The notes: generated from the letters alone by a model not told the origin. Shown: positions 5,273-64,000, numbered from the stretch's first letter. The stretch is 64,000 nucleotides of DNA from an uncultured Candidatus Peribacteria bacterium (GCA_964469925.1 CAYXZL010000003.1:40448-104447); one strand, 5' to 3'. Numbers and translations: made by a program.

Positions 5273-5303
5273 TAGAAGTGCTATTTCAAGTTGTTAGTAG
5301 TGA

Positions 5304-10685: not shown

Positions 10686-10771
10686 GCCTGGGTGGCGAAA
10701 CTGGTAGACGCGTCAGACTCAAAATCTGATGACCTTTGGTTGTGAGGGTTCGAGTCCCTCCCCAGGCACCA
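10686..10771 (+). tRNA. tRNA-Leu (anticodon CAA), type II with long variable arm, CCA encoded
   Basis: Acceptor GCCTGGG/CCCAGGC. Anticodon stem TCAGA/TCTGA with loop CTCAAAA. T arm GAGGG-TTCGAGT-CCCTC. 3-prime ACCA. Confidence 0.9.
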
Positions 10772-17870: not shown

Positions 17871-18055
17871 GGGTTAGCGTATTGGCTAAAAGCATGAACT
17901 CGGCACTGAAATTGTAAGTTGCATGCAATAGTATTATAGATCAAAAATACAATCTGTCAAATAACTAGGGGCGATCTTTTTTGTCTTTCGCTGCTTTTAT
18001 GACTATACTTAGTGACACCAAGAGGTGTTTTGTACTTAATGCATGGTGATGTGTG

Positions 18056-21000
18056 ATGGCGGTAGGACCCAAAAGTAACGCTAACAGCAACCAAAACGAT
18101 CAATACCAAGAACAGAGCATGAGATTAGATTCTGAGGTTTTTTCTATACTACAAAGGTCCTACATAGACTTTCTAAAAAAGGAAAAACTTGATCGGACAA
18201 CAATGAAGAGACACCAAGATTACGTAGAAAAGTTTTTTGAATATATAAAAAAGTGATGAAACAAGGAATTGTTGAGCCTAGCAAATAAAAAAACGCTCAA
18301 CGCCTTTTTTTCTGCAATAGAAGAAAGATGAATAAAGGCAGTAGACTTGCTGGGAGACAACAACGCTAGTATCTCAAAACGTATAAAACCAGCCAATAGT
18401 GAAAAAGTTGGTTTAGAGAGAATGCTGAAAAAAATCTATGAAGAAACGGCTGATGTGACAGTTTGAGACGATAATGCTTTCAAAAAATTCGCTGTAAAAC
18501 ATTGACTAAACTTCAAGGAGGCTACCGGTCTCTGTAGTATCGATAAAAACTCAAACATACAATCGATAGCATCATTAAAAAAAGAACGAAGAAAATTCGC
18601 CAGCTGATTGCCAGACAAAGTGAGACAAAGAGTAAAAAAAAACGTATTCAAGCATACAGCTACAATGTTCTATGACCAGACTGAAAAAATGGCTGCCACA
18701 GCTCTATTGCTGAAATATCGTAGGGTAATAAAAAGCCAAAACTCCAAGGAGTTGCTAGAGGATTTTGATAGAGAGTTTCCTATACCTTTGCCAATTTACA
18801 ATAAAAACTCCTATGGCTGAGACGAATATGAGCAAACCAACAGTCTGCCAGAAATTAGGTGAAGATGGGCTAACTTTCTAAACGAAAGTGCTAGGAATAA
18901 TGCCGATACCATAGTACAAGAAATCAGCGACATAAGAATAACAAATAGTGACGTAGTTGAGGCGTACAAGGACTTCGGATGAGCAGAAAATGACGAGTTT
19001 GACGGTCTAGATAGCAAGAACGTGAATAAATGGTCGACTCAAACCAGGATCATGTTCAATAAGCTGGTGGCAGAGCAGTTTATAGCAGACTATGAAAAGA
19101 GTAAAGATTTTGTCGACCAAGGTCTTAAGACAGTCGCTTCAGCTATTGCTGACACACCACCGACCTTTAATCAGTTGTTCAAAAAGTACAAAACAAGCAG
19201 AGAGGAGTTGATAAGCTTTGATCCTTCTCTGGAAGAAAAACTAAAGAACAAAGATCAGTGTATTGAAGATTTGCAAAAAGAAAGGGATAGTGAGCAGGCA
19301 GATCATAACAAAAACTATGCCAAACTAATTAATGAAGAAAGGCAAAAACAGCAAGAGGATCTGATGCAAGCTTTTTTTGTTCAAGTGAGACAAGATGATG
19401 ATGAGTTAGGCAGAATCCTAGAAATAGCTTATGATAATAACTTCAACTTGGCAAAATTAGACCACAAGCAACAACAATACCTCATCCGCCAGTTGTGTAG
19501 CATCACATTAGATGATGTGAAAGTACAAGAAATAGTAGTGAAGATGGGTATTGATCCAGACTGATTAGAAAAATTCAGTACAGAATTATTTGATCTAAAC
19601 AGCAATGCCATAACTATCCCGATGGGCGATCAAAGCATACCGATCGAATTTACAAAAAAAGGTTTTTTGCCAACCAGCATACACAAAAGCAACGTGGACC
19701 TAGAAAAAATGAAAGAACGAAGACATTTGGGTTTCAATCTATCTATCAAGGTAACTCCTGAAAACGAAAAATACCTCCAGTCACTATACAGAAAGTCACC
19801 CTTTCTGTTTAGAAAATTCGGTACAAAGGAATCATCACCCACTATCAGCGAGTGATACAAGGTTAGAATAAGCAGAAACGGTGAGTCGTATGTGGGGTAT
19901 CTGTCATTGAGATGAAAGGAGATAGAAAATGAAAAAGATCAGACCAAAATGGAGCGACATTTGTATAGTAAGCCAGTCAATCAATATGAAACGGAGAGGG
20001 AACTGGCCTACGGTAAGCCCATACCAGATGATGAGGCTCATGAGCGAGACGTGGATATCCTAGAAAAAACCGTACATCTCAACGGAGATGCTATAGGAGG
20101 GTTAATATTGGGTCACATAGCAGGCGAGGCTACAAAAACTAAAGATTTGAATACAGATACAAAGGATGTGTCAAACCGAGCAGAAGACTGAAGTTTTGCA
20201 AACACATATCGTGATACCTTAGAGCAGCAAGCACTTGAAGAAGATAAGTGGGCAGTTGAACAAAAAAACAAATTGGAGTCCGAAGAGGATGCGAAAAGAA
20301 ATTTAGAAAAAGCACGAAACGAAATCCAGCCACGCAACAAAAAGGTAGCATTGGAAAAGGGAACGAGTTTGCGAGTACAGGAGTGAGAGTCCGAGATTTT
20401 TCAGCCCTTCATCGATCAAGGTTTTGGGGAGTGATGATACTGGCATTGTTTTGAGATAACGGACATAGATACAAGCAAAAACACAATTACATTTAGAAGG
20501 CATGGTTGAGAACAGAAACATAGTCAGGAGTGAACAATAACGATGCCTCTGAAGCCAGAAACGTTTGAAAAGTTCCGCAGTAGCTACGGGATAAATCTCT
20601 ATAAGACCCCTAAAGTAAAAGCTAGAGAAGAATGATTTTTTGGTCAAATAAGGTATCTGGAGGAGGCGGCCATCCCCAATGTGTCTGATAATCTTAAGGT
20701 CATTGGAGGACAAGTAAAGTTTAATGGAAGCAGGTTTTCGACGTCTCATAGTGGAGAAAGCCTTGAAACGCAGTATTTCTGAGCGATGGCAGACAATCCT
20801 GAAACAGGGAAACCAACTATCATAACATTCAAAGTCGAGCCATGATCCGACGGCAAAATCAAAGTGTCTGGCTGAGAGTTGGTGAAAAGATGAGACAGGG
20901 GAGAGATACTCCAACGCTACAAATATAATAAAGATATGGATTATACAAGCTTTCTCCTGTTTATAGGAGAGCACAAGCTTAGCCCGTTGACCGATGATCA

Positions 21001-23308
21001 AATCAATGCCTTCAAATTACAACAAAAAGAAGCATATGGTGCAATTGATGATGGTGATCTATCGAACAAAAAACTAGAGTTTTTTTCCTTGTCAGATTTT
21101 GGTTGATTTTTTAAGTGACGATATAGTAAGTTTACTGATAAGCGAAAGGAGTATAATGAAGAGAGATTAGATATGTTGACCGATTTGATGGTGACCGATC
21201 GAAGGTTATATCAGAAAATGTCTAATACGCTGTGATTCTGGTGAAATTGGAGAAGTACGTGGTCCAAGATAGATTATGACGTGAGATTGGAAAAGGCTGG
21301 GAAAATTATGGCGAAGATTACTGCACGGAGAGATAGATACGCCAAAGAGCCAGATAGAAGCCCTGTGGCAGCAGAGATACTCAAGATGGTGTTAAAATGA
21401 CCCTTTCCAAACACGGAACGCCTTTACCAAGTAGCGGGTGCATTCCTCTATATGATGGAGAAGGCAGGCGGTATGTATGTGAGAGCGTTTGCCCCATATG
21501 CATGACAGGGCTTGCGGGTCAGAGCACTGTTGTGAGACGCACACCGATCGAAGTACAAAAGACAATTGGCAGATCTAGAAGCAAAACTAAAGGCCGATCC
21601 CACTAATGAAGATTTACGTGCACAGATACAGCAGTCAGAGGCATTATATTTGAATATAGCGATTGATTGAGCAGATGAGGTCCTAAAGTTCAGATTCTGA
21701 ATAGACTTCGCCGATGCTATCATGCCAGCCTATCAGTGATCGTTGGGTACTGAAAAAATAAACTCAACAGCAAATGCACTAACAGGGATGGCACAATTTT
21801 GATATATCTTTGACCAAAAATTTAGAGCAGAACTCCAAAAAGGACAAACCGCTAAAGCTTTGGCCTGACTCAAAGCGGCTGCCTCACTAGCAACCCGTAG
21901 CTATGAAGTAGAGAAAATAAAAGGTGGGATTCTGTTGGTGCTACTGTCGGGAGTAAATATGTATGGAGGAGATAGTGAATCAATCAACTTTCTGGTGCAG
22001 TTTTCGAGAAAGATATGATTTTTGCCAGGTATGCGAATGGAAGACTTCAATTGTCAGACCAAAACCGCTAGACTCCTCCACATGATCACAGGAGACTTTT
22101 ATGTAGAGACTGGGTATAAAATAGAGAATTTTGCGGCAAGCAATTATGGCCTATGAATGAAAAATACGAAATGATGATATACGGCTGCATTTATGAGGCG
22201 GTGGAATACTGCGAAGCTAGGAGACACGAAAAGTCGTGGCAGTAACATAACAGATTTTTTGGATATGAAAAGCTTGGCATGAGACCATAGTTTGCTGTGA
22301 GGCACCATAAATGGTAGACAGCTATCCTACGAGGATAGGAAATTGGTACAAGAACTGATAGGCTTTAGTTTCAACGACTCAACCAGCACCATTACTGACC
22401 TGAACAACAAAGAGTTCTATAGAAATCCGATGACGGTACCTAAGACGGTCGCACAACAGTTCATGAATTTTAGGGGCACAGACTTTGCTGGTGATGATAA
22501 TCAAAAAGAAAGTGCTCAAATATTTTGGCGTTCATTTGCGGATGCAATACCAGTCGATACGATCAATGATGATCAGTTCAAGACAACAACACGCTTTATT
22601 ATGAAAAAGTTCGCGGACACAATTGGGTCCAAGTACTTCACAGGAAGTAACGAAAACGACCTTATCAGAGCACTAGGTGTAGTAAGGAACATCGGAAGAG
22701 ACAAGGACATAGCAAACAAGAGGGCTGAGATAGATTTTCTCCTCCATGCTATCATTACAATGAACTTACAATCAGCCTATCAAGGTATTCCGAACGAAAT
22801 TGATGCGGTCGGTGAAAAATTCAAAAGATTTCTTGAAAATAATATTGCCAATATTGACGGTGATGTGATAGAAGAAACATTTTGACCAAACAAGAGGGAT
22901 ATGTTTGATAATCCGTGAGATTATGTCGCATGACTCGGCTTTGACAAAAGAGAAATTGACAAAAAGGTGAAGGAAAGGACAGATGCGGGTGAGACCAAAC
23001 CCTTGTTTAATCAGAGATTGCGAAATATCCATAGAGGTATGATGACCAGATGACAGGGATTGGACTTCGAGTATCAAAAAATCATGAACAAATACGATGT
23101 TTCGTGAAAAGAAAAAGAAACTCAAGAAACGGCAAAAACGAAAGTGCAGGCATTAGGAGAAAAGAAAAAGTTCGTAGCAATCAAAAACCCAGATGGATAC
23201 GATCAAGACAACAAGAGTTCTCCGTGAGATCCAAATCCATCTGCAGGCATTGGAACAGGACAATACGATTATGACGAACCAGCTTGGGTATGACAGCAAG
23301 AATACTAA
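18056..23308 (+). CDS. giant hypothetical protein, about 1750 aa, K/E/D-rich
   Basis: Six listed fragments (18053, 18608, 19022, 19622, 19949, 22343) share frame 2. I read 20189-22343 codon by codon and found only TGA interruptions. TAA at 23306-23308. Start ambiguous (ATG 18056, GTG 18053 or ATG 17999). Confidence 0.75.
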
Positions 23309-28612: not shown

Positions 28613-30019
<1,407 letters not shown>

Positions 30020-30165
30020 TGTTTTTTTAATACAAAAAAATAAAGAAGTCTTTACAAAGGATACTACTATTACTGTACCAAAATGCAACTAGCAAATAAT
30101 AATTCAAAACACCTGATCGGACATGAAAACACCAATTTCATCTCACACAAAAGCACTTACGGCAC

Positions 30166-48603: not shown

Positions 48604-48909
48604 TTATATTCAATAATGCTTTTTTAGGTCTGACTTTCGAGAGTCGGGAAGTACTGTTAGAAAATCAGTCCCATAAAGTTCTAATGCAATATCAGCAACA
48701 AGGAAAGAGAGTTCATAGAGGGGCGATGATGTATCCTGAGGAAGATCTCGTCATCATCCCACACTCGTGAGAAACTGGTCCTCTCTAGAATCTTTCGGGC
48801 TTGAGGACAATCGCAGCATCAAACGATCTCTACATCAAAAGTCTCAGGGAATATCGCTACTGAGCTGAGCAAGTCTGTCGAGATACCCTTGCTGGTTAAG
48901 GCTAGTCAT
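48604..48909 (-). CDS. hypothetical protein, 101 aa, start overlapping the giant-ORF stop (ATGACTAG)
   Basis: ATG at 48907-48909 overlaps TAG 48902-48904 of the upstream gene. Frame open with sense TGA to TAA near 48604. Composition only moderately protein-like. The alternative is a 5-prime leader of the VIT gene. Confidence 0.3.
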
Positions 48910-51900
48910 TCGTATTTCAAGTAGCTAAAGTATCATTTACCCTAGAAGGATCATGAGAAGATTCTCATCAACCTTGGTCGCTATCGCGGACTCATCAAGT
49001 ACCTGTTCTTGCTTGGGAAATCGCCTGAGCGACGGGTGGCATCATATGTTCAAGCATATTATTTGCACTGATAAAAATTGCAAGGTGAGACAGAGAGTCG
49101 CCAGACGTAGCAATATGTTGGTACAGAGCAATACGGTCAAGTATATAAAGATATTGACTTTCGTATTTGTCGATCTGATCCGGATAATTATGAATATCAG
49201 AGAGTAATCTTTGGAGACTGGCCATCTCAAAGGCCTGTATATCAAGAATTTGAGCTGGTGTTTTGGTGCCAAGATTGATCAGGTCGTAGGAATAGAGTTC
49301 TGCAAGTTTAGCATAGGCGTCGGCATCTATTTGCTGTCTCTTGAGCTTAAAGCCTTCGACATGATGTCTCACATCCTCTCTGACTTGGGGGTACGCGTTA
49401 AGTGCATCGTTAATATAGCTATTACGTTGGTCTTGATCATGGTTTTGTTTACCAGCAACGATGGCATCTAAGTATCAAACAAATCCATCAACCGTAAGGT
49501 CAGGCCTAAGCATCCCTATTTTGAGCATCCTTCCTCAGGCCTTGTGATATTTCCCTGGCTTCATCACTCAGCGATCATAAGCTGATACGGTAGTAGTATG
49601 ATAGAGTTCAGCGATAAGATTGATGCCGTAGTAGTCAGCTTGTGCTCATTTTTCCAAAAATCTAACAGGCCTATCTCATCACATATCAATATCATAGGTT
49701 GCTGCACCCATAGCCTCACCAGCTAGTGCCGTGCCTTGATCAACAAAAAAGATCTCGAAAGCATAGGGAACAGGTCAGACTTGATAACGTCCTGTGATCT
49801 TTAAGTGTTGATAGCCAGGTTCACGAGAAAGTTCTCAAACAATAAGTTCTAGCTCACCAGCTTGTGGGGGTGGCGTAATAGTCCTGAGAACCCTACCATT
49901 CACATCGGTAATATCAAGTGTTTGAAAATCTGTATCATGAGCTAGATCATGAAGTGCATTCGGAAAGTCGCTAGCTGGAATGCTTGGCTCAACATCTTCA
50001 GGGATAGTATTGTGTTCCGTTCACATAAACAGTGCAGAGCTACCACAGAATACAATATCTTTCACAGACGAAAGAGTGTTGGTAAGTTTTTGTACGGTTG
50101 TATGCCATGCAGTATAATAGTCTGAAGCACTATAGCGGCTGTCTGCATGTGCTGGTAGTCTGAGTGATGCTGGGTTGTTGTTTTTTTGTGCGTAGTGATA
50201 GCCAACATACTGTCACACCAACAACAGATCATTGATATGCGACTGAATAAGACGAACACGTCCAGGATTATTGTCCGTTTTAGCTTGTTCTAGGTCAGCA
50301 TAAAGCTTTTCCAATAATTTCTTTATATGTTCTACTGGAGGAAGCTCAGAATCAAAAAGTTTGAAACTAGCCGCAATAGCAAGAACCCTCTGCAAAATAG
50401 GGTTATCAAGAAGGGACTTCCTAAGATCATGCTCTCGATTAGCGATAGCCTCACGATGTTGGTTGAGAATAGGGAGAATCTCTGCAATTTTGTCCGTAAT
50501 GCGAGTATACAATTCTGATCATGCTAACAAGAGACTGTTGTTTTGTACAAGTGCAATGTTTCCATCAGCAAAGGTAGTGAGCTTGAGATGTTGTTCTTGC
50601 AAAAATGCTTGTAGTGATGTTATTTTGTCAGACAAAAACTGTGAAATATGGTCAAGCCCATCAGACGCCCTGCCGGCGATGCTTTTGAGTAATTGAGGAG
50701 TTTTAGTCACGCCTTCCATAATACCTCCATACAGGATCGTAGAGGATACGACCTGACCAAGGTTTTCTGGTGAGAAGTTGAGTTGCGTAGCTTCTCGAGC
50801 TGCCTGAAACGCATCGCTAATACGTCGTGCTTGATAGCGAAGTTTATTATCAGCACCGCCATCCAAAGGGGGTTCTGATGAAGATGGAGCGTTGAGGGCT
50901 GTTGATCACACAACAGGTTGTGCGTCGGTTCCCACAAAAGTGTTGATCCCCGTCCTCATGACATTAAATGCAGGATCGATCAGGAGGGACTCCCACACAA
51001 GCTCTTGCATGCCAAAACGTAATCATTGAGAAAAAACGTTGCTGCTACCACTCAAAACAGGTGGCATGACTTTGCTTAATCCCAGTGTTGCCCTATGAAC
51101 TATGATATCGCCAGCCAAGTCAAGTACGATTTTGTCCGCTCCATAAGCATTCCCTTGCTGATCAAAGAAGCCGGTAGCATTCATAGCAATATTCCAGACA
51201 TCGTCTGGTGACTTTCCTTCAGCTACAGCACCCAAAAATCAACCAGCAGTAGCTCACAGTCTCGATCAAATAGTAAAGGAAGCAGACGCAACCCAGGGGT
51301 TCTTAGTAACGACAAGAGTAGCAGCAAAAACCAGTGATCATCCCACCAAAGAGCCAATCTGCTGTCCTACTTCGGACCGCCTTCCCTGCTTCCATGCATC
51401 GATAGTTTTTTCGACTCCATCACTGAATTGCTCTCCAAAGCCATCTCTCACGATATCATCAGGGTTTGATCCTTTGGAAAAATCAAGCTTTGTCCCAGTG
51501 AGAGGATTAATAATCACTTGTCTTTGGCTAACACATGAGGGGGGTGGTGAAGCACTGAGGAGAAGTTTGACATAGTCCACATTCATAAAGTAGAGCAACC
51601 TTTCGTTCTGATGATAGTAGTCAGCATAAGCACTTTGTCTTGCTTGTTCATACATTCCTGCTCTGAAAGCCCTTTCCCCAGGCTCTCCTGCGGGACCAAA
51701 GCTCATCTCGGCCTGTTTAACTCTGTCAGGGTAGGCAGCATCACCTTTTGCCTTAAACTCAGCTATTTTTTTATCTCGCTGACTAATGGTGTCAAAGAAC
51801 GAGCTAATGCTTCTGAGGTCAACGTTGTGAAGCTGGAGTTGTTGTAAGGCCTCCATGCGTTGCTGGATATCGCCGTTTTGACTAAGAAATTGCTGTCCAA

Positions 51901-52984
51901 TACGAGTCTCTCTCATGAGAGATAAAAGAGTTTTCCCATCAGATGTCTGCGTAAGTTGAGTTTCATCAAACCAAAACGCCTCGCTGCCCTTGATGGCTTT
52001 TTTGTAAGGACCAAGACGAGTCAGAATGTAGGTCTGCAGCAATGGTCAACAAAATGATGTCGATTCATATTTTTTAGCAATAGTGAGGAGGGAAGAATGA
52101 GGAGCCCGTTTTTCAACAGCAGCAGCGAATTGCTGATCATTGAGACGCATAGTACCCAAATAGAGTTCCAAACTATCACGTGCTATACTGTCAATTGGGA
52201 AACGGGAACGTCCTTGAGAAATAGAAATATATTTGTTTTTGAGGTCTTGGAAATATTGACCGATCTTTTTCATCCTCTCCATATGCAATACGCAATCCTG
52301 GAGGGTATGGTGCGTCATACCTTCTCACTTGTAGTTTTTGTAATCAGGGAAGACGTAAAGATAATGAACAAAGAACACCTGTAAGTTGCGTACAACATAA
52401 GGTAGATAGTCCTGTTTGACAGTAGCACGTGGCAAAAGTCTCGCTATGTCGTCAACACGAAGAGTCGTCCGAGATTCTTTCGTGGGGAATTGTTTGAGAA
52501 TAACGCTCCAATTTGGTACAGTGTCCAAAGATATTCCCATGATTTCAAGGTTTTTCTCGGGAGGAACGGTAGTGGCGACCAATAACTCATCACGATAGTG
52601 CTTGTTAGAGTTTTGTAGTTCGAAGGAGTTAAGGTGTTGGCGAAAGGCGGAGAATTGTTCATACAGGTGGAGTTCATGATCCAGGAGAGGTAAGCCACCA
52701 TCTCAGCGACTAACAATAGACAAAAATTGTTCAGCAAAAGCACGAGATGTTTCATCGAGGCTATCGCAGGTGGCGGGGTTGGAATAGCTATCAAGTAGCT
52801 GTGACAGAGCTTCAAAAAAAGAATGAGCAACATCTCCTGCTTGCTCAATTTCTCATGGGAGTACCGCCAACTCGTGCGGTTCATCCAAGAGTCCCTTTTG
52901 TAGTCACTGCAAAAGCTCATTGTATGAGACAATGTTTTGATCTTCTTGTTGATTCAGTTGTCTAATCTGATCAATAGTGTTCAT
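48902..52984 (-). CDS. giant hypothetical protein, about 1360 aa
   Basis: Seven listed fragments (52325, 52046, 51338, 51023, 50519, 50213, 48995) share one frame, and I read the gaps without TAA/TAG. Central Gly/Ala-rich hydrophobic segment. Start at MNTIDQIRQ (52984). TAG at 48902-48904. Confidence 0.7.
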
Positions 52985-53264
52985 CGAGTCAATCGAGTAA
53001 ACGATTTGCATCATCTTCATCATGAATACGCTCCTGTTCCTCTTGTACGTGGATCTGCTTGATCGTATCGAGTTGCTGCTGCAATGCGTGTTGCATTTTT
53101 TTATTAGCAAGACGGCCAACAGCTGCATTGATCGGCTTCAATACAATATCGAGCATACTGTCAGGGAGATCGTAGTTTTCTACCACGATCAAAAGTGCAT
53201 CTGCACTGTCCCAATACGGTTGCAGCTTAGTCAAAACACGTATAAGTAAGTCCTTTTTGTTCAT
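52962..53264 (-). CDS. hypothetical protein, 100 aa, 3-prime end overlapping the giant ORF start by 23 nt
   Basis: ORF 52989..53264 extends 8 codons past TGA to TAG at 52962-52964. Helical, acidic C-terminus. Confidence 0.5.
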
Positions 53265-53470
53265 GGCTCACATCCAAATGAAGCCACGATAATCATACTG
53301 ACATCTAGCACAAAAAATGAGATACGAGGCTTCCTCAAAGGATCATGTATTGACAGAGGGAGGTTTTGACATGAGCATATGAATGGTGTAGAAAACATGT
53401 CGTTTTTTTGCAATCAAAAAGAGCGGGGACTATAATAGTACTACTTATAGATTTACCTGCTACAGAGCCG

Positions 53471-56400
53471 ATGCGTCGACACAGCCTAGTCAGCTCAGTA
53501 ATAGCCAGCCTATTGCTGGTCAACATTGCGTTTGCACAAAGTTGTGTCATCATGATTGACAGCAACATAAATGAAGATAAGTCGTGATGATATGATGGTT
53601 GCCTAACTGGTTGTATACTGACAGATGCGAACAAGGTAACCGATAACGAACAGAATACCACAGCGATTATGTCGGTACCCGCTGTTGATGGAAAAGGATG
53701 ACAAAGGTTGACAATCAGCTTCCCAACGACGTTCACACCAGGTACGACAATGTGATTTGGTCTGGTAGATGATGCGAAAGCATTGAATTCGTATCTTCCC
53801 TACCTTACGCTGAGAACCTATTACAATGGTGTGAGTAAGGATGTCATAGCTTGATCATCAATATTAGTATCGACCTTGTCTTGACTGCAAAAAACACTTT
53901 CTTTCGTAACTACCACAGAGTTAGACACCATGCAGATAGATGTCGATGCTCCATCTTCATGATCAGCTTTAACACTAAAATTTGACTTCCCCTTTTACTC
54001 CACAGGTAGCTTTACAGGAGACCTAGACGCAGACACAATTCCCGATGTTTGTGATGGTGACCGAGACGGTGATGGGATCGCAAATGGGGCTGATAATTGT
54101 CCCTTGAGCGGAAACGCTCAACAAGAGGATCTTGACGGAGATAGTATAGGAGACATATGTGATGATGACAAAGATGGTGACTCTATTGTTAATAGCGTAG
54201 ATAATTGTGTCAACACAGGTAACAACGATCAGGCTGACCGTGACAATGACAAGGTAGGGGATGTATGTGATAGTGATATCGATGGAGATACAGTCAGTAA
54301 TGATAAAGACAACTGCCCACTCCTAGCAAACAATAATCAAATCGACACAGACAAAGATAGCATCGGAGACGACTGTGATGAGGACAAAGACGGCGATGAA
54401 ATAATAAACGTGGCAGATAATTGTTCCATGAAATCAAATCCACGTCAGGAAGACTTAGATGGTGATGGCATCGGAGACGACTGTGACGATGATCGAGACG
54501 GTGATAATGTAGCTAATAATTGAGACAAGTGCCCACGAAATAATGACCCACAACAGCTTGATACAGATCAAGATGGCTTTGGAGATGCTTGTGATGACGA
54601 TCTTGATGGTGACACGATAAAAAACATAGAGGATAATTGTCCCTGAGCGGTAAATCGAGAACAAGAAGATATGGACTCAGACTGATCGGGAGATGTGTGT
54701 GATGACGATCTCGATGGTGATTCCGTTGCGAACAGCGTCGATAACTGTGATCGTGTGGCCAACCCACAGCAGGTGGATACGGATGCAGACTGATTATGAA
54801 ATGCATGCGATCCAGACAAGGATTGAGACACGATAATGAATGAGAGCGACAACTGCCCCCTCGTGATAAATTCAGATCAAAAAGACAGCGATGCAGATGG
54901 CATCGGCGATCCCTGCGATATTGATCAAGATGCAGATGGGGTTAAGGATAGCGATGACAATTGTATGCTTATCTCAAATCCAGATCAGAAAGATACTGAT
55001 CAGGACGGCTTTGGCGATGTATGTGATGATGATATTGACGGAGACCAAAGAGAAAACGCAGATGACAATTGCCCAACGATCTCCAACCCCGATCAATATG
55101 ACACAGATCAAGATACAATAGGTGACCCCTGTGACAATGACGTAGATGGAGATGGGATAAATAACGCAGACGACAATTGTCCGACCACAGCCAATGAACT
55201 TCAAAACGACAGTGATGGTGATGAGGATGGAGACATGTGTGATGATGATCGTGACGGTGATGGAATTGCTAACATAAATGACAATTGTCCCTATTTTGCG
55301 AATCCTTGACAACAAGATCAAAATCAAAACCTCATAGGAGATGTGTGTGAAGATGATGATGATGGTGATGGAGTTGGTAATGAAAGCGACAACTGTCCTA
55401 AGCTCAGCAATGCAGACCAGCAAGATAGAGATACCGATGGTGTTGGAGATGTCTGTGATACGGATAAGGACAACGACGGAGTGTTAGATGCCATAGACAA
55501 CTGTCCTGTACTTTCCAATCCGGGACAGGTTGATGGAGATGGCAACGGAATAGGTGACAAGTGTGAAACAGACTATGATGGAGATCTAGTATACAATGCA
55601 GAAGATAACTGTCCTAGCAAATATAATCCAAATCAATGAGATCAGGATGGTGATGGAATTGGTGATGAATGCGACAACGATAAGGATGGTGACAAAAGAC
55701 TCAATGCACAGGATAATTGTGTGTGAGTAAGCAATCGACGACAGCACGATATAGATCAAGATGGAATTGGTGATGAGTGCGACGTGGATATGGACAATGA
55801 CGGCATAGTGAACGAGCTAGACAATTGTCAGCGAGTAATAAATAGTGACCAAAAAGACGAAGATGGAGATGGAACCGGAGATGTCTGTCAAGACGATGCT
55901 GACAAGGATTTGATAAACAACGAGCTAGACAATTGTATATTTATTTATAACCCAGATCAAAAAGACAGCGACGCTGATGGCATCGGAGATACATGTGACG
56001 ATGATCTTGATCAAGATGGTTTCCTCAATCAACAGGACAACTGCCCAGTGGCAAACAATCCTACACAAACAGATAATGACAGTGATGGTATAGGAGATAT
56101 CTGTCAGGATGATTATGACGGAGATGGAGTCTGAGATGATCAAGACAACTGTTTAGAGATAGCCAATCCACAGCAGTGAGATAAGGACCTGGATGCTATA
56201 GGAGATTTGTGCGATCCAGACAAAGATGGTGACAAAATAAAAAATAACGCAGACAACTGTCCTAGCATAGCAAACTTTGATCAGAAAGATATCGATGGTG
56301 ATGGAGTCGGCGATAAGTGTGACGCAGATAAGGATAACGATGGTATAGATAATCAGAACGATAATTGTCCCATGATAGCAAACAGCGACCAGAGCGATGA

Positions 56401-57340
56401 AAATGTTGACGGTCAGGGGGATATCTGTCAAGACGATCAGGACGGCGATGGCATAAAAGATGCCAATGATAATTGCCCAACAATTCAAAATATGCTACAA
56501 ACAGACGCAGATCAAGACGGTTTCGGTGATGACTGCGATATCGATAAAGACAACGATGGAATAGATAATCAAAACGACAACTGTCCATGGGTAGTAAACC
56601 CAGACCAAATCGACGAAAACATCAATAAAATCTGAGATGCTTGTGAGGGAGACGACGATTGAGACGGGATAGAAAATGACGTGGATAATTGTCCAATGGC
56701 CTATAATACGGGACAGGTCGATCAAGATTTTGATGAAATAGGAGATATCTGTGACGGTGATAGTGATGGAGACTGACTGGAAAATGGCTTTGATAACTGC
56801 CCTAGTATAGCAAACACAGACCAAATTGATATTGATGAGGATGGTGTAGGAGACGTTTGTGATGATACGATCTATGGTACGGGAGTAGTCAGACTATTGG
56901 ATTATGACATTATATTCGGTACGATAAAAACGAGCAAAACAGCTCAAATTATGAGTGGTCATGTAGCTGGTGATGGACTGATAAAGGTGCAAGATACAGC
57001 AGGAACCAAGCCTCGGTATGTGACGATCGAATTTACCGATATTGTCAATAAAACATACGGTAACAAGATAGATGCCGATAATTGTTTTTATAGAGTGAAT
57101 CCAGATGCTGAAGTGGTGGCGGTAGAAGACTTCTATCCATTACAAGTCTCCAATCATGGTGGAGAGATTGCTCTAGGAGAGCCAGTACAGCTGTTCCATA
57201 GAGATGTGTTGAACGGGCAAAAAGGAACAATGGGTATAGGAACAGCCAGCGGAGCAATCGATATCCGATGCAATATACCACCATTTTTGAAACCATGAGA
57301 GTACGAGTGAGACATTGTTCTCACCCTCATAAGAGACTAA
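53471..57340 (+). CDS. secreted thrombospondin type-3 (calcium-binding) repeat protein, 1289 aa
   Basis: Signal peptide [23 protein letters not shown] and a 180-aa N-domain. About 26 units of DxDxDGxxDxxDNCPxxxNxxQxDxDxDGxGDxCD follow, then a 150-aa non-repeat C-domain. Six listed fragments are in the same frame. Confidence 0.85.
54020..56870 (+). repeat. in-frame tandem array of about 26 degenerate ~108-nt TSP3 repeat units (approximate bounds)
   Basis: The GAYAAYTGYCC (DNCP) core recurs with a regular period. The repeats generate the many spurious antisense ORFs listed at 54455..56824. Confidence 0.8.
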
Positions 57341-57394: not shown

Positions 57395-59185
57395 TTATCA
57401 AGAAATATAGAGTATATCATCCCAAGGAGTCCTAAACAAACCTTCGTCCAATCTTTGTTGGTCCAAATAATGTCCGATAAAGCCGATAGATCTTGCAAGT
57501 ACAAAAAACGCATTAGCAATACCAGCATTGAGATAGTGCTGAATATCAGTAGCATCCATGCCAATGCCTATCATCAAATCAAGGAGTAAGGCGGCAATAT
57601 GACCATCAACATTTAAAATCAGATTTGGTTTTTTTTCCAAAGTGAGCTTCTCGACTGCCTTAGCAAAATCAATATGTGTACTTGTGGGGAAATGTGCTGC
57701 AATCTCCAATAAAAGGCTGCATCTCGTGTCGGGATTATATTTTGACTTCACTCTATGACCAATTCACTGGATCAGCTCGCCTCTACCTTTGTGGTCATCA
57801 ACATACTGCTCGGGGCTCCGTCAGTTATGTACTGCGGAGAAAAACCCTGTAGCTGCACCATCAATGGCTCCACCAAAGCGTGGTCAAATGGTGGCTAGTC
57901 CTGCAATAAGACTAGAAATTAGGTCTTTCCCAGCTCTTGCGGTAACAATAGTGTTGATGGCACCAGACACAGCGGGACCATGGTCGGCAAGGAGAATCAA
58001 GACTGTAGTAATGAAACGCAGAGCCCAATCAGGAAGCTCTTTCTTGAGCCAGAGATGACCGATAACACGAGCAATAGATTGTGATGTCACAAAATCATCA
58101 ACAGCGATACCATCGTACAGAAGTGTCTCGCCTCTTTCATCGCTAATGCTTGAACTAAAGCGACTTGGTCTCCTGCGATTGATAACAGATAGTCTTTCCA
58201 ATACAGTAGTCTCGGAGATGAGAGGCTCTGCTATGTGGCAGTGTTGTTGAAAAACAGATGAAATGAGACTACCAAACTCTCTATAGCTGTTCGGTACATG
58301 GATGCCAGCCTGTTGAAGATAGTCTATTTTGTAGGATGATTTTTCTTCATCGGTATTGGCCTTGGCTCATGCATGACCAAACTGTACGTCTTGTGTCGTC
58401 TGCTCGGCAAATGAACCGCTGACCCAAGCTACAACAGGCTTGGTAATCGATCATGCTTTGACTAAATCTGCAACGGCGAGTTCATCTTTGTTGCCAACTT
58501 CACCGAGCATGACAATCATCTGGATATCGGGATTGTCCTGATATGCCAATACGATATCTGCAAATTGAGAAAAAGGATATCTATCTCAACCTAATGCAAT
58601 AGCGGTGTGTACTCAGTCAGTATTCTGTGCAATTACCCTACACAACTCATTCATCATCCCTCATGACTTAGAGACAAGCCCCACAGATCATGGTCTGTAG
58701 AGCTTCGACTTAATAATATTGTCAAGTGATCATCCAGTATATCACAATCTCAGCACCCCCGCACCCAGTCAGCCAACAGTCGATGGACCAATCAGGAGGA
58801 TATCTCTTCCTTCGTCACGTTTGATCTGTTGTTTGAGTGCTATAAGCTCTCTACTTTCCCTTTCGGGTATCCCTTCTGCAACGACTACAATAGTGGTGAT
58901 CCAGTCATATGTCATCGCTTCACGCGTACTCGTTGTGGCAGAGCGATGAGAAGAAAAATTAAGTAGACAATGTGCTCCCGTCGGTTGTGCATGAGCAAAA
59001 TCAGGAAAAACTGGACAGAGAAATTCAGAAGCACCATAGCTAAGTTTGATATTACCCTTGTTTCCAGGGCTGATAAATCAAACAATACTAGGAGTCCTCC
59101 CACATAGATAGTCAAAATCCAACATTCTTTGGGCAACCACCTGCTGCTTGCCATAAATGAGGCAATACGTATCTGCGGAAAACAT
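57395..59185 (-). CDS. aclA: ATP-citrate lyase alpha subunit (CoA-ligase plus citrate-synthase-like domains), 596 aa
   Basis: Collinear with the remembered human ACLY C-terminal half. Shared strings: MLDFDY, IIAEGIPE-like VVAEGIPE, GPSTVGG, NTGG-like YTGGSLDNI, KLYRPGSV, SKSGGM, GGDRYP, catalytic-His loop QFGHAGA, ADHGPAVSGA, GPRFGGA, GIGHRVKS, KKPNLILNVDG and FIGHYLDQQRL. Confidence 0.9.
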
Positions 59186-59219
59186 CAATCAGACCAACAA
59201 TCAATAAAACACTAGCTCT

Positions 59220-59801
59220 TTACTGCTTGGCAAATTCTATCCCCTTCATACGTCCAATAGTATAGACTCCAGATTCTCACCTGTGTATTTCAAGGTATGC
59301 ACAATCTGCTAAAGAAGCAATTTCGCCATGCCACAAGAGCTCCCTGGCAATACAACGTATGGGTCACCCGTGAGTAACAATCAGAGCACGATCATCTTTT
59401 TGCACATCATCAAAAGCATCGCAGACCCTAAAATTGAATGCACTGTAGTTTTCTGCACCCATAACAAGACCATCGTAACGAGAGACCTTCTCAACCAGAT
59501 CGGGGTACCGTTTTTGTGCATCGAGCTTGATCATACCGCTGAGAATACCATAGTGGTTTTTTTCACGAAAATCATCGTAAATCATGACATCGACTCCCAA
59601 GCGTTGACCAATAATCTCTGCAGTCTGCTGAGCCCTGATCAAGGGGCTGGTATAGATGACAGAAATGGCGTAATCACGAAAATCATCAGCTAGAGACACT
59701 GCTTGTTCAAATCATAGTTCAGTCAGTTCATCATTGTATAGTCATCCATAGCGATTCTCGACGTCGCTAGTACTTTGACCATGCCTTACCAATCGTACCA
59801 T
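59220..59801 (-). CDS. histidine phosphatase superfamily branch 1 (PGAM/cofactor-dependent phosphoglycerate-mutase-like), 193 aa
   Basis: N-terminal LVRHGQS (RHG catalytic motif), SPLIRAQQTA and a late THGG. ORF 59364..59699 extended both ways across TGA. Confidence 0.8.
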
Positions 59802-59887
59802 AGATAGATTATGCTGATAAATATTGGGAATGTAGCTCTTCTCAACGCAAATACAACCAAAAGAAACCATAGGGACAAGGCTAGGCA

Positions 59888-61126
59888 CTAACGAATGTTT
59901 CTCAAGATATCGGTCATATAGATATCTCCATCAGCGGTAGTGACGGAAATGCCATGTTCTTTGCATACACGATCGACCATTGCCAGTCCTTTCGTATCGT
60001 TGAGTCATCATCTCCTGACCAAAAGTCTGATATCTTGCTGTTTGATTACTGCTGCACAATCGGTAATCGCATCACACACACCAATAAACAGGCTATCAAT
60101 ATAGGTGAAGTTTGCTATCCCACCAGCGATTAAGAGGTATTTGTTTTGTGCTTTGCTTGCAAGCATTTGTTTGATAACAAGACGAGAGTACTCCCTGTTA
60201 GAGTCGGTGTCGGGGTTGCCAGAAAGTTCTCCATAGTTTGCAATATCATCTGATAAGCCCATTTCTCAGAGGCTATCAATCAAAATGACTGATGCACCTC
60301 AACCGCCCAAGATCATCCAAATACGACCATCGGGATTGAGGATATGGAGCTTGAGACTTGCAGCACTTTTCTCATCCATGTCCTGTACAATAGCTTCTAC
60401 AGGATCAATATTGGTACCAAAAGGCTTGATTCGGTGTATGTAACCCCAAGCCCCTCACATCCTGATCTGAGCACAATCGTCGACCTTTGCAACCATATCA
60501 AGTAAGATACTCTTACCATCAACAATAGTGAAGGGATTACATTCCACGTACACAAAGCCATTGCTCCTAAAAAAACGAAACAGACGAGCAATAAGTTCTA
60601 CAATAATGCCACGGTCACCATCCTGATCAATGTCTCATTGTCACAAGAGTTGTTGAAGTTGCTCATCGGTGATCGTGTCCAAAACACCAATACGAAGGGA
60701 GCTGACCGATTCTCGATTCTCCTCAACATCAACCCCTCAGCGAGGAGAAAAGTTGATGATATCGGCATCTCTCTGTGTCTCAAAAGAAAGATAATACTCC
60801 TGCGTATGTGCTACATAAGGCTCAATCAAAAAGGTCGTCAAAATTCATGATATGCCATTGACGCTAGTAGCCTTCCCCATTCTGTCGGCAATCCAATGGT
60901 GCACTCACTCTGCATCGAGTTTGAGTCCTATCAATCCGTGTTTGCCTCTCTTGCCAAAAAGCTGATCAGGCTTGACGACAAACAGATCATAGTCAGACTC
61001 TTGTAGCTGCCTAATAAGAGAGCCAAGCTCCTGCGGATTGCTGACAATCCAGCCACTATAGGGCTGACCACTGTGCTGTGACCAGAGGATTTTCGCATCA
61101 TACTCACGAATGCCACGTTGTGCCAT
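59888..61126 (-). CDS. aclB: ATP-citrate lyase beta subunit (ATP-grasp/citrate-binding), 412 aa
   Basis: IREYDAK, VVKPDQLFGKRGKHGLIG, FLIEPYV, SAASLKLHILNPDGRIWMILGGGGASV, ANYGELSGNP, GGIANFT and VRRGG are collinear with the ACLY N-terminal half. I read the gap 60262-60905 without stops. Confidence 0.85.
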
Positions 61127-61264: not shown

Positions 61265-64000
61265 TTAGTTTCTTGGATTATTGAGGGCATGGTAGTAATT
61301 AACAATATCGCGAACCTCCTCACGAATAGCGACAGAACGAACTCGATCATCAAGCTCTTTACCTGTAGAAGCTGGATTAGGCCTGGGGATGAGTTCAAAG
61401 CTTTTTTGGGTCATGCGGTCACGACCAAAGGGATAGCAGGTTGTGGCACGCCTTGCAAAAGTAATTCAGGGACGAAATGCAGGTCAATCTTGAGGTCTTA
61501 CAGGATTGATAGTACCAAACATGAGATCAGTAAATCAGCTAGCACTAAATGACATGAGAACAGGAGCGGCAGAGTCTCAGCTATGGATACAGGTATCAAG
61601 GAGGAGGGTCGGCTCACCAGCATTGAGATAGAGATTTTTATACCTTGTTTGAAACTCAGTCTGGATGTCCTCAAAGCTTTCTGGCAACGAAAAAGGATCG
61701 CAGGCATTTCCTTTTCTGTTTTGCTCATCAATAATATATCTCGCCTCCTCTTCATCGTACATTTCTTTTGACTTAAATCCCATAGGATTAACAAAATAGA
61801 TTTTAGGCCTTTGTGCTCTGGGCCGCCCTTCCAAGTTCCAGTACCTCATAAGACCCAGTGCCATTGGCCTCATAGAGCGATCAAACAAAACAAGGTTCTT
61901 AATGCCATGAGTCCTAATATAGTCTGAGACACTCACGATGTGTCCATACAGCTCAGCCCTTGCCATCTCAGTGTCGAAGATGTCGTATTGTCTACCATTG
62001 CTATCAGTGTCTGTCTTGCCACAATATCACTCTCTGATCAGCCACGATGCTTGCTCAATCGTCAATCAACCATCAATCAAGATACGCATTTTTCTTGCTA
62101 ACTGCTCAGGTGTATAATTGTAAAGCTTAGCAGGTGTGCCATCTTTACCTTTCTCTCCACTACCAACTTGATGGGCGACCTCAATGAGTTCTTGAAGGGC
62201 AATATCGCTGATGTCGGGGGTCTGTCTGTTGGAAAATTGTTCTTTGAAAGGAGCAACTTTTTGACTCTTATCCAGCTTACTATTGGCTTGTTTACGGATA
62301 CGTTCAGTTTCGATACTATCATCTTCAAGGTCACGTTGAATAACGTCGAGTGCGAGATCTTCTGATACAAGATCTTTTCATCATCTGATAGCAGCATCAG
62401 CTCTTATATCGATACCTGCACCAAGCGATTCACGTAAACGTCTTTTCAGAGACTCTAATGATTTGCCCGTACCAATCGTGTCGTCAATGAGGGTAATATG
62501 AGAAACGCCACGCAAAAATTCGGCAGGAGTTTGAGATGGCGAGATTGCTGTGTAGGAAATCGTCCCATCAGCTTGTCTCTCAAGCACCCATCCATGGTAA
62601 TTGCTATTGGGGTCGCCGTTTTGGTGTGGATCGAGAAAAAACACTTTGTCACCAGTCTTTTTGAGAGATGCTCTCGCACTTTCCATCATAAGGAGCCCAG
62701 CATACAGCATAACGACTGGCGTCCTACCATCTTTGCGACAACGGTCGAAGATGAGTGTTCCCCTCATGTTAAACAGGTCAAATCACTGTCTACTCACTTG
62801 TGCGGCTTTGGCAGCATTGATAGTTCTAGTAGGATCATTGACCGCCTCCAGTGCATTCGTCACAGCAGCTTGATAGTCTGCCTGATCCGTAGCTGTTTTG
62901 TCAGATGATTGGAAAGTTAGATAGGCATCGATGACAGCGTCTTGCTGTGGACCAGCATCAGTATACTTGCAAGCGAAGTAGAATCATAAGTCACCAAACT
63001 TTGGATGAAGAAGATCTGTAATCTCGCTCTTCCCAAACTGAGCTTGTCTGTGTTGAAGTGCATCTAAAGAGCTAGGTGGAAGGAGTGTGGGAATCGACTG
63101 CTCTGGAAGTGTAAAAGCAGAGACAAGAGCGTTTATCGTGTTGATCAGACGCTGTCTGATGGCCCAATCAGTAGGATCCATGTTTTCTATGAGTCAGTTG
63201 TAGATGGAGAGGAGTGTGCTTGCACGTTTTTGCAACTTCTCGAGTTCTCATTTATTTTTAAGGAGTTCTAGTGCTCATCATCATGACGCTCTGGAGGTAG
63301 TCATGGCAGTAAGTGCTATGGTTTCTAAATAATCATCAACTGTGTTGATCTGAAAAACCGTCTGGAAGGTTTGGTTGATGCCAAGGTGCGTAAGATCCAT
63401 GATCCCATTAGTCAAGAGCTCTTCACTAATTTCTCCTACCACTTCGTAACCAAACCTTTTGACAATCTCACGTTTGGTCATATCTCCCAAATATTTGCTC
63501 ATGTATCAGCCAGAGAGTTTTTCTCAGACTAGGCTTTCTACGACACCATCGACGCTACTAGCAAAAAAGGCATATTCTGCAGCTCAAGCTCACGTTAGTC
63601 CGCTATTGATAGCAAGTGTAAGGTTGTCGTCTAAGCGACCAAAATAGGCCCATCACAGCTTCCCAAGTACATCAGAACTAGGGGGTATATACTCCGCAAC
63701 GACACCAGCACGGACCAAGAGTGATTCAGCCTGTTCGGAGAGGAACCTAGCTCCTGTCCTCATGAGGAGAAAGTCAGTGTAGGCACTTTCTGTTTTATAA
63801 AAAAGTGATCAGATGTTCCAACTCCCGTCAGGGTTGACAAGAGGGGTAGAGGCCATGACTGATGCTGGCGTGGTAATAATGCCAGTAGTCTTACTAAACA
63901 GATTTCCTTTGTTCCAATCATCAATCATCTGAGCTTCATATTTATCGTCTGATAGCCATTTTGCCCCAGCAACACTCAAGTCATAGGGAGATTTGAGTGT
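61265..64000 (-). CDS. giant hypothetical protein with two PRTase-like modules; N-terminus beyond the right edge (more than 911 aa visible)
   Basis: Fragments 63281, 62984, 62381 and 61577 share one frame, open to position 64000. TAA at 61265-61267. HITLIDDTIGTGKSL and TLLLDTCIHSGDS resemble type-I phosphoribosyltransferase PRPP loops. Confidence 0.7.

Follow-up and report, generated by a model that had tools for sequence, protein, structure and literature searches.

A Gracilibacteria-type ATP-citrate lyase operon with a histidine phosphatase gene between its two subunit genes

Under genetic code 25, three co-oriented genes in the window (the whole 64,000-nucleotide stretch of DNA analysed here, from whose first letter all positions are counted) read as aclB, a small histidine phosphatase gene and aclA. 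The two outer genes are predicted from their sequences to encode a complete, heteromeric, two-subunit ATP-citrate lyase (ACL) with an intact phosphohistidine loop, and the middle gene is a predicted, catalytically intact RHG histidine phosphatase. Our preferred reading, to which we assign a probability of roughly 0.7, is that this is an ACL of the Gracilibacteria clade plus a passenger metabolite phosphatase, acquired by the ancestor of one genus-level clade and probably co-transcribed with the acl genes. What appears to be new is a histidine phosphatase, intact and under selection, within the acl operon of one genus-level clade, together with different small ORFs at the aclB-aclA junction in other Gracilibacteria; the present evidence is of variation in operon structure and not of a new system. 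In the direction of transcription, the features are as follows.

61325-61308, minus strand: terminator-like hairpin after the upstream gene (consensus scan only, weak)
61305-61277, minus strand: promoter-like site about 150 nt upstream of aclB, 9/12 matches (consensus scan only, weak)
59888-61126, minus strand: aclB, ATP-citrate lyase beta subunit (ATP-grasp and citrate-binding domain), 412 aa (code-25 ORF, Pfam, PDB matches)
59802-59887, minus strand: spacer between aclB and the phosphatase gene, 86 nt (from gene coordinates)
59220-59801, minus strand: histidine phosphatase (His_Phos_1 / PGAM branch 1), 193 aa (code-25 ORF, Pfam)
59186-59219, minus strand: spacer between the phosphatase gene and aclA, 34 nt (from gene coordinates)
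57395-59185, minus strand: aclA, ATP-citrate lyase alpha subunit, 596 aa (code-25 ORF, Pfam, PDB matches)

These coordinates confirm the gene order described in an earlier note on this DNA, namely aclB, a 193-aa RHG phosphatase and aclA with spacers of 86 and 34 nt. Neither spacer held a terminator-like or promoter-like consensus in a scan that returned only weak matches overall, and the three genes are probably co-transcribed. The hairpin and promoter-like site at 61277-61325 possibly mark the start of this transcription unit. Rfam and tRNA scans gave no match within or near the operon.

How all three genes read depends on the code chosen. Translated with table 11, the region falls into fragments, and the genes are intact only under code 25. 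The table-25 assignment of the earlier note agrees with a rise in the share of the window covered by ORFs of 100 aa or longer, from 44% without recoding to 95% with TGA read as Gly, and with Gly at the TGA columns in homologues. Because TGA is recoded, the table-11 ORF listing is uninformative, and ORFs were taken from the code-25 translation instead. In-frame TGA codons number 10 in aclB, 4 in the PGAM-type gene and 14 in aclA. As the earlier note had observed, the second Gly of the QFGHAGA loop is a TGA codon in the aclA sequence (G273, directly after HA), and the corresponding column is Gly in 73/73 standard-code AclA homologues. Gly is the majority residue in the columns of 12 of the 14 aclA TGA codons, and against the orthologous locus of a sister species (L003) Gly stands at 25/27 aligned TGA positions. 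TGA in this genome therefore encodes Gly and not Trp; the Trp reading was rejected on this alignment with Gly, both in homologues and in the sister species.

AclB matched the Pfam domains Citrate_synth_N (PF24948; 185 bits, cut-off 83) and Citrate_bind (PF16114; 161 bits, cut-off 26.8). Against ACL structures it scored 284 bits with chain A of the Methanothrix concilii enzyme (6hxi_A), 255 bits with human ACLY and 118 bits with Chlorobium AclB, compared with 75 bits for the large subunit of citryl-CoA synthetase (CCS) and at most 31 bits for the beta subunit of succinyl-CoA synthetase (SCS). The alignment runs from AclB 1-407 to Methanothrix AclB 1-412, and from AclB 49-407 to human ACLY 55-414. 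The N-terminus, MAQRGIREYDAK, has the same letters in the Methanothrix protein, and the motifs ANYGE.SG, IANFT and VRRGG appear in the alignment with 6hxi_A. AclA consists of a CoA-binding/CoA-ligase part (Ligase_CoA, 65.9 bits) that contains QFGHAGA at residues 268-274, fused to a citryl-CoA lyase module with citrate-synthase homology (Citrate_synt, PF00285; 75.6 bits over residues 369-585). It scored 555 bits with human ACLY, 551 bits with Methanothrix AclA (6hxi_B) and 294 bits with Chlorobium AclA, compared with 71.5 bits for the CCS small subunit, 60.6 bits for citryl-CoA lyase (CCL) and about 83 bits or less for SCS alpha. Residues 1-594 are collinear with human ACLY 492-1094. The motifs GHAGA (with H271), ADHGPAVSGA, GIGHRVKS and GHYLDQ were invariant across 25 Gracilibacteria AclA sequences; the last three we take, from what is familiar of citrate synthase and ACLY structures, to be the His/His/Asp catalytic motifs. 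The claim that both subunits are complete and collinear with eukaryotic ACLY is thus borne out by the alignments to human ACLY 55-414 and 492-1094.

The earlier note had itself raised the alternative that the two large genes are paralogues from SCS or from the CCS/CCL pair, and we see only a vanishingly small chance of this. Its one point of departure is that the best NCBIfam matches of both genes were SCS alpha/beta and citryl-CoA lyase, each of them well short of its cut-off (69-128 bits vs 336-375 for the SCS models). NCBIfam returns SCS and CCL as best matches because it holds no ACL model, and such sub-threshold matches are therefore no argument against ACL. The ACL-specific Pfam domains, in contrast, lay well over their cut-offs, an SCS-alpha-like and a citrate-synthase-like module are joined in a single 596-aa chain that is collinear with ACLY 492-1094, and the best scores against ACL structures (284-555 bits) stand far from those for CCS/CCL (60-75 bits), SCS alpha (about 83 bits or less) and SCS beta (31 bits or less). 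On these three grounds the paralogue reading was rejected.

The presence of ACL in a table-25 bacterium, which had been flagged as unexpected, turned out not to be so. More than 100 Gracilibacteria-type AclA homologues were found at 50-56% identity, several of them titled 'ATP citrate synthase [Candidatus Gracilibacteria bacterium]', and the code-25 AclA sequences were monophyletic in a quick NJ tree. A two-subunit, archaeal-like ACL with GHAGA has also been published for a closed Gracilibacterium genome, where its proposed role is to yield acetyl-CoA and oxaloacetate from external citrate (Sieber et al., 2019, mBio, PMC6851277). By all appearances in its sequence, this is an unremarkable locus within the Gracilibacteria-specific clade of heteromeric ACLs. 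AclB would bind ATP and citrate; AclA would carry the catalytic phosphohistidine (His271 in GHAGA) and bind CoA, and its C-terminal citrate-synthase-like module would split citryl-CoA. Citrate cleavage is most likely the direction in which the enzyme works, as would suit a small genome with no reverse TCA (rTCA) genes nearby, and scavenged citrate, ATP and CoA would then give acetyl-CoA and oxaloacetate, as proposed for the closed Gracilibacterium genome. ACL would in this way offer glycolysis-poor, host-dependent Gracilibacteria a route from scavenged citrate to both products, and the present locus adds one further species to the published picture.

No other TCA-cycle gene had been seen in the window, and this is true for the 42 ORFs that were put through Pfam, a set that omitted the giant ORFs at 17969-23305, 48905-53179 and 53345-57340 and a few short ORFs. 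The giant ORF at 53345-57340 is a repeat protein. Matches included an M20 peptidase, a Trp-repressor-like protein, HSP20, signal peptidase, SSB, a rhodanese/UPF0176 protein, a GatA-type amidase, UPF0029, ATP synthase beta, a two-component pair, MscS, RecA, GNAT and VIT1; many of the 42 ORFs had no match. RecA did not tell BD1-5 and Absconditabacterales apart, as named matches from both groups stood at 71-75%.

The phosphatase begins with MVRLVRHGQ and scored 118.7 bits with His_Phos_1 (PF00300). R6, H7 and G8 of the RHG motif, the second Arg (R56), the acid Glu (E80) and the second His (H144) were invariant in a 31-sequence family alignment, and divergence from the sister-species copy (pN 0.138, pS 0.72) points to purifying selection. 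No specific family could be assigned from NCBIfam, where the protein fell under the cut-off of every equivalog, including CobC, dPGM, PspA and SixA. It scored 82.6 bits vs 225 for dPGM_arch, 26-54 bits vs 261-421 for the bacterial dPGM equivalogs, whose models of about 228-249 positions matched the 193-aa protein only to residue ~101-107, and 48 bits vs 81.7 for the subfamily model pgm_1. The SixA model (TIGR00249) gave 28.4 bits vs 74.5 and covered residues 4-83 only. An AF2 model with pLDDT 89.3 matched PGAM-fold structures; it belongs to a database call (P0121) of 216 aa in which the 4 TGA positions read as Trp and the N-terminus bears a spurious, low-pLDDT extension of 23 aa. In Foldseek, the top fold matches (9mmh, 4ij5/4ij6, 4pz9 and 6e4b) were all small-molecule phosphatases, with E-values from 5e-15 to 5e-13 and TM-scores of ~0.7-0.8 at an identity of only 20-27%. 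The top PDB match by sequence was Hydrogenobacter PspA (4ij5; 49 bits), with a fold-search E of ~1e-13. Judged by these comparisons and by the model, the phosphatase is probably functional and resembles enzymes that act on small molecules.

How widely the insertion occurs was assessed across the ACL loci listed, of which about 13 were Gracilibacteria-type code-25 loci, a set for which the tblastn confirmation is suspected of having read TGA as stop. Among the loci listed, the order aclB-PGAM-aclA was found only in the window (to which L001 and L002 are identical) and in the sister species L003. The other 10 code-25 ACL loci listed did not have the phosphatase gene, and a profile-HMM search (E<0.01) found no other His_Phos_1 ORF within 6 kb of ACL in the 87 loci listed. 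Conservation of the phosphatase in acl operons elsewhere, which the earlier note had proposed as a check, is thus confined to two species of one clade and extends to no other listed ACL locus. The gap between aclB and aclA had a median of 47 nt in 73 standard-code loci and was shorter than 30 nt in 6/13 code-25 loci among those listed. Other small putative hydrolase ORFs did occur at the same junction, Nudix-like in L008/L009 and PLD-like in L007. Between the window and L003, amino acid identity was 76% for the phosphatase, 80% for AclA and 68.5% for AclB; synonymous divergence was saturating (pS ~0.72-0.75) and the gene arrangement was kept. The whole 17-kb region is syntenic between the two, with all flanking giant genes included, and retention of the insert is therefore no specific evidence of coupling.

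Outside ACL loci, the nearest relatives of the phosphatase (39-52% identity) were proteins of ~195 aa from Woesebacteria, Microgenomates, Paceibacteria and Nanoarchaeota, with which it forms a CPR/DPANN family of its own, marked by a conserved ENRYGG motif. We examined 82 loci of this family (471 kb), all of them intact under the standard code, and found neither aclA nor aclB within 5 kb; a conserved neighbour gene was also sought around them, and no gene was shared by more than 7/82. Among the 120 best phosphatase matches, only the two from the window/L003 clade carried the TGA-recoding signature.

These results bear on what the phosphatase does. The earlier note had proposed that a dedicated PGAM-type partner could regulate or reset ACL. 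Such a partner would strip the phosphate from the phosphohistidine of AclA, or split enzyme-bound citryl-phosphate, and the enzyme would thereby be reset or turned down. The order of the genes, their short spacers and the retention of the phosphatase by purifying selection would suit such a role, as would two precedents: SixA, a bacterial protein phosphohistidine phosphatase, lies within the His_Phos_1 superfamily (PMC7948535), and mammalian ACL is a reported substrate of PHP/PHPT1 (PMC3355010). We nevertheless consider the proposal very unlikely. The gene is missing from all other ACL loci listed, the other 10 code-25 loci among them, its family has no ACL nearby in 82 loci, the SixA model reached 28 bits against a cut-off of 74.5, the top sequence and fold matches were metabolite phosphatases, and synteny with the sole other carrier spans the entire region; hydrolysis of a catalytic intermediate would, moreover, merely waste ATP. 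A clade-limited insertion whose family lives in ACL-free contexts and whose nearest structures are not of the SixA type does not favour a dedicated partner. Of the earlier interpretation, then, the genuine split ACL and the intact RHG phosphatase stand, and the unexpectedness of ACL and the dedicated partner do not.

It is unlikely, too, that the phosphatase shares a carbon flow with ACL, acts on one of its metabolites and is co-regulated with the lyase on that account, for example as a phosphoserine phosphatase or phosphoglycerate mutase/phosphatase on the oxaloacetate-PEP-phosphoglycerate-serine branch, or as an enzyme of CoA- or nucleotide-related phosphates. Probable co-transcription, the top PDB match to Hydrogenobacter PspA (4ij5), a metal-independent phosphoserine phosphatase, the partial matches in NCBIfam (dPGM_arch, PspA and CobC), and the Nudix-like ORF at the same junction in another Gracilibacteria lineage all agree with it. 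However, every NCBIfam match was far under its equivalog cut-off, the family has no conserved neighbourhood that points to a pathway, and no enzyme of such a branch was seen among the Pfam-scanned ORFs of the window. A broader proposal, that the aclB-aclA junction in Gracilibacteria repeatedly recruits small hydrolases (PGAM-type, Nudix-like, PLD-like) as accessory or 'housekeeping' factors of ACL, with the AclA phosphohistidine or a phosphorylated or CoA-linked by-product as the target here, strikes us as a long shot. If true, prokaryotes would have a genetically hard-wired parallel to the mammalian control of ACL by a phosphohistidine phosphatase, and any junction proteins that modulate ACL would make bacteria a simple setting in which to study its control through phosphohistidine or metabolite repair.

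Under the reading we prefer, a passenger metabolite phosphatase, the ancestor of the genus-level clade would have acquired the gene horizontally, and the gene would have come to lie between aclB and aclA, where its transcription is now probably shared with the acl operon; the enzyme would act on some phosphorylated metabolite and not on ACL. Several side observations would fit co-expression or some physiological coupling: all three genes point the same way, and their spacers (34 and 86 nt) are free of terminator or promoter consensus; the arrangement has outlasted saturating synonymous divergence; the phosphatase is conserved like AclA and more than AclB; and small putative hydrolases at the same junction in two other Gracilibacteria lineages may be no coincidence. 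On the sequences at hand, a functional link between phosphatase and ACL is not supported, though conceivable.

Among characterised phosphatases, PspA (4ij5), a histidine-family phosphatase of the riboflavin pathway (9mmh), mycobacterial glucosyl-3-phosphoglycerate phosphatase (4pz9) and the alpha-ribazole phosphatase CobC (6e4b) share the fold, the size of ~200 aa and the catalytic set of the window protein. SixA shares the superfamily, but its model gave 28 bits vs 74.5. PHPT1, whose fold is unrelated to His_Phos_1, is an example of ACL phosphohistidine as a phosphatase target, and no comparative evidence links the window phosphatase to ACL. The mammalian ACL is reported to lose activity through the action of PHP/PHPT1 (PMC3355010).

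Among ACLs, the locus of Gracilibacterium 28_42_T64 ('Detritibacteria gulfii', CP042461.1, L004; PMC6851277) resembles the window in its use of code 25, its split aclB-aclA, its GHAGA motif and its place in the same NJ clade. It differs in that its subunit genes, called with 12 nt between them, lie side by side without a phosphatase gene, its flanks hold unrelated genes, and identity to the window is only 50% for AclA and 42% for AclB. The ACLs of Methanothrix (Methanosaeta) concilii (6hxi/6znw) and human (ACLY; 6hxh/6uuz) are collinear with the window proteins over their full length, and their CoA-ligase and citryl-CoA-lyase catalytic motifs are identical to those of the window. The Methanothrix acl genes are adjacent, and Methanothrix-type loci have no phosphatase gene between them, whereas the window has one; human ACLY joins both parts in one chain that includes a regulatory linker, whereas the window has two subunits. 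Chlorobium limicola ACL (6hxj) is heteromeric AclA/AclB with the same domain order but is far more distant (294/118 bits), and it works in an autotroph's reverse TCA cycle, a setting of which the window shows no sign. Finally, CCS and CCL of Hydrogenobacter (6hxq, 6hxp) consist of homologous modules and carry out the same two half-reactions as the window ACL would, at scores of 60-75 bits; there they are separate proteins, whereas in the window lyase and CoA-ligase modules share one chain, as is the case in ACL.

Read with the standard bacterial code, the region from 57.4 to 61.1 kb is a patchwork of short ORFs. With TGA as a sense codon, 50 long ORFs span the whole 64-kb window; ORFs of 100 aa or more then cover 95% of it instead of 44%, with a median length of 354 aa instead of 149 aa. 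The region then holds three co-oriented genes, with spacers of 86 and 34 nt:

59888-61126, minus strand: aclB, beta subunit of ATP-citrate lyase (ACL), 412 aa, 10 TGA codons
59220-59801, minus strand: phosphatase gene, 193 aa, 4 TGA codons
57395-59185, minus strand: aclA, alpha subunit of ACL, 596 aa, 14 TGA codons

In AclA, 12 of the 14 TGA codons fall on columns with a Gly majority across 73 standard-code homologues. Eight of these columns, including the second Gly of QFGHAGA, are 100% Gly. In alignments with the orthologous genes of L003, a sister species, 25 of the 27 aligned window TGA codons lie opposite Gly. Judged by these alignments, TGA is glycine in the window. The earlier note had described the coordinates, the spacers and the TGA-encoded Gly of QFGHAGA correctly in every checkable detail. 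At the 3' end of aclA (57395-57400; codons TGA TAA), the protein ends ISG, with its last sense codon, TGA (Gly), directly 5' of the TAA stop. L003 AclA has Asp at this position, and any code with TGA as stop would shorten AclA by merely one residue.

AclB contains the ACL-specific ATP-grasp domain PF24948 (185 bits) and the citrate-binding domain PF16114 (161 bits), and AclA consists of a CoA-ligase domain fused to a C-terminal citrate-synthase domain. Both were scored against structures of ACL, succinyl-CoA synthetase (SCS) and citryl-CoA synthetase/lyase (CCS/CCL).

Scores of the window proteins against known structures
Human ACLY: AclA 555 bits (residues 492-1094, collinear); AclB 255 bits
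Methanothrix concilii ACL: AclA 551 bits; AclB 284 bits
Chlorobium ACL: AclA 294 bits; AclB 118 bits
Citryl-CoA synthetase: AclA 71.5 bits (small subunit); AclB 75 bits (large subunit)
Citryl-CoA lyase: AclA 60.6 bits; AclB not applicable
SCS: AclA ~83 bits or less (alpha); AclB 31 bits or less (beta)

The motifs GHAGA, ADHGPAVSGA, GIGHRVKS and GHYLDQ are invariant in 25/25 Gracilibacteria-type AclA sequences. Because NCBIfam has no ACL model, its matches to AclA and AclB are limited to SCS and CCL models, below threshold. By sequence, aclB and aclA are a true ACL, as the earlier note had it; the alternative of an SCS or CCS/CCL paralogue is ruled out by the ACL-specific domains, the structure scores and the invariant motifs.

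Some database proteins are tandem 'double AclA' sequences of 1004-1040 aa (L005:6001-9087, P0008; also P0004-P0015). Their N-terminal copy keeps QFGHAGA and has degenerate lyase motifs (ADRDP, GIGHCTYS); in their C-terminal copy the His loop is degenerate (QMGHMAV) and the lyase motifs are intact (ADHGPAVSGA, GIGHRIKS, GHFIDQ). The gene adjoins an aclB-like gene, isocitrate dehydrogenase and PEP carboxylase; the alpha subunit looks to have been duplicated and subfunctionalised in some standard-code organism.

The earlier note's view that ACL would not be expected in this lineage is outdated. More than 100 AclA homologues (590-600 aa, 50-56% identity) came up in a protein search, and at least eight of them already carry the name "ATP citrate synthase [Candidatus Gracilibacteria bacterium]"; one is from the closed genome of Gracilibacteria 28_42_T64. 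The GHAGA site of Gracilibacterium ACL and its resemblance to archaeal proteins have been noted, and the enzyme was proposed to convert external citrate to acetyl-CoA and oxaloacetate in an organism without glycolysis and the pentose-phosphate pathway (Sieber et al., PMC6851277). On the horizontal transfer that the earlier note had raised, a quick NJ tree of 83 AclA sequences, without bootstrap support or eukaryotes, placed all code-25 AclA (TGA read as Gly) in one clade, apart from archaeal, Aquificota, Campylobacterota, Elusimicrobiota and other AclA, with the window AclA sister to that of L003. Because the code-25 sequences form one clade, a single old acquisition followed by vertical descent would fit. 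Window RecA shares 71-75% identity with proteins that bear the names Gracilibacteria and Absconditabacterales, which puts the organism in the code-25 group without telling the orders apart.

The phosphatase belongs to His_Phos_1 (PGAM branch; Pfam, 118.7 bits), and its catalytic set (R6-H7-G8, R56, E80, H144) is complete, at positions invariant across its family; an ENRYGG motif directly after the RHG loop is also conserved. It reached no NCBIfam equivalog cut-off: CobC (87 bits, cut-off 163), archaeal dPGM (cofactor-dependent phosphoglycerate mutase; 83, cut-off 225), PspA (73, cut-off 350) and SixA (28, cut-off 74.5). With 76% amino acid identity to its L003 counterpart, pN 0.138 and pS 0.72, the gene is, by its substitution pattern, functional and under purifying selection; AclA and AclB are 80% and 68.5% identical between the two species.

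The earlier note had proposed a dedicated partnership between ACL and the phosphatase. Co-orientation, short spacers and purifying selection speak for it, as do other small ORFs that, oddly, recur at this junction elsewhere in the Gracilibacteria. However, comparative support is lacking from either side. The order aclB-phosphatase-aclA was found in two contigs identical to the window and in L003 (from P0002). Because L003 is syntenic with the window over the whole 17 kb, giant flanking proteins included (65-83% identity), retention of the insert there is part of general synteny. Among the matches listed are 73 standard-code ACL loci (Thermoplasmatota, Bathyarchaeia, Methanothrix, Asgard archaea, Aquificota, Campylobacterota, Elusimicrobiota, Caldisericota, Thermotogota and others), whose median extrapolated aclB-aclA gap is 47 nt; the gap is under 30 nt in 6 of 13 code-25 loci, and 3 of the 13, all one clade, have the phosphatase. 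A profile-HMM search (E<0.01) of the 87 ACL loci listed found no other His_Phos_1 ORF within 6 kb; in these loci the phosphatase is not conserved inside acl operons beyond this clade. From the phosphatase side, the nearest homologues outside its own clade (39-52% identical, vs 72% within it) are ~195-aa proteins of Woesebacteria, Microgenomates, Paceibacteria and Nanoarchaeota. In 82 loci of this family (471 kb) neither aclA nor aclB was found, nor any conserved neighbour common to them; all 82 copies are intact under the standard code, and the two contexts inspected are unrelated to central carbon metabolism. Among the best 120 phosphatase hits, only the two from its own clade have the TGA-recoding signature. 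A partnership therefore has a low probability.

The simplest reading of these comparisons is that a CPR/DPANN housekeeping phosphatase was acquired by the ancestor of this genus-level clade; the gene would have settled in the aclB-aclA spacer and stayed there long enough for TGA-Gly codons to appear in it (4 in the window, 8 in L003). Co-transcription is plausible, because neither spacer has a terminator-like hairpin or promoter-like site in a consensus scan, which placed such a hairpin and a weak promoter-like site just upstream of aclB (61325-61277). Most likely, AclAB would carry out catabolic citrate cleavage, and the phosphatase, though co-transcribed, would serve a separate function as a metabolite phosphatase.

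The aclB-aclA gaps are short in nearly all 73 standard-code loci, with exceptions in L005 (478 nt), L027 and L030 (~170-207 nt). In other code-25 Gracilibacteria, different small ORFs occupy the gap: that of locus L007 holds a 238-aa ORF (5277-5990) with weak PLD-like similarity (PLDc_2, 18 bits), and visibly similar ~150-aa ORFs lie in the gaps of L008 (~2850-3299; weak NUDIX similarity, 17 bits, below cut-off) and L009 (758-1219).

As the earlier note had observed for the window, no other TCA-cycle enzyme was found by Pfam in 42 other ORFs, all but three giant ORFs and a few short ones; the scan found no citrate transporter either. Identified genes encode RecA, SSB, a GatA-type amidase, ATP synthase beta, a histidine kinase/response-regulator pair, MscS, signal peptidase, M20 peptidase, GNAT and VIT1. 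The lone ATP synthase beta gene (28616-30088, minus strand; ATP-synt_ab, 246 bits) has membrane or Pfam-hitless proteins as neighbours, not other atp genes. Near the operon there is neither an Rfam family nor a tRNA; the sole RNA gene detected in 64 kb is a tRNA-Leu (CAA) at 10686-10771 (plus strand). Very large proteins of unassigned role flank the operon:

48902-53146, minus strand: 1414-aa ORF, 65% identity in L003
53345-57340, plus strand: 1331-aa secreted-looking, Asp-rich protein, convergent on aclA; almost all 'DxDxDGxxDxxDNCP' repeats, thrombospondin-type-3-like by eye; 83% identity in L003
61265-63979, minus strand: ORF of over 900 aa, cut off by the window edge; only a weak PRTase-CE match (17.8 bits), around a ITLIDDTIGTGKS motif; 80% identity in L003

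An AlphaFold2 model of the phosphatase (pLDDT 89.3, pTM 0.85), from the database version with Trp at the four TGA sites, predicts a long two-stranded beta-hairpin at the C-terminus (residues 184-213 of the 216-aa call; m34250892bc02). Its top fold matches are small-molecule phosphatases, among them a riboflavin-pathway histidine-family phosphatase (9mmh), Hydrogenobacter phosphoserine phosphatase (4ij5/4ij6), mycobacterial glucosyl-3-phosphoglycerate phosphatase and alpha-ribazole phosphatase; dPGMs rank below them. The ACL subunits, in turn, are far closer to human ACLY and Methanothrix ACL (255-555 bits) than to Chlorobium ACL (118-294 bits).
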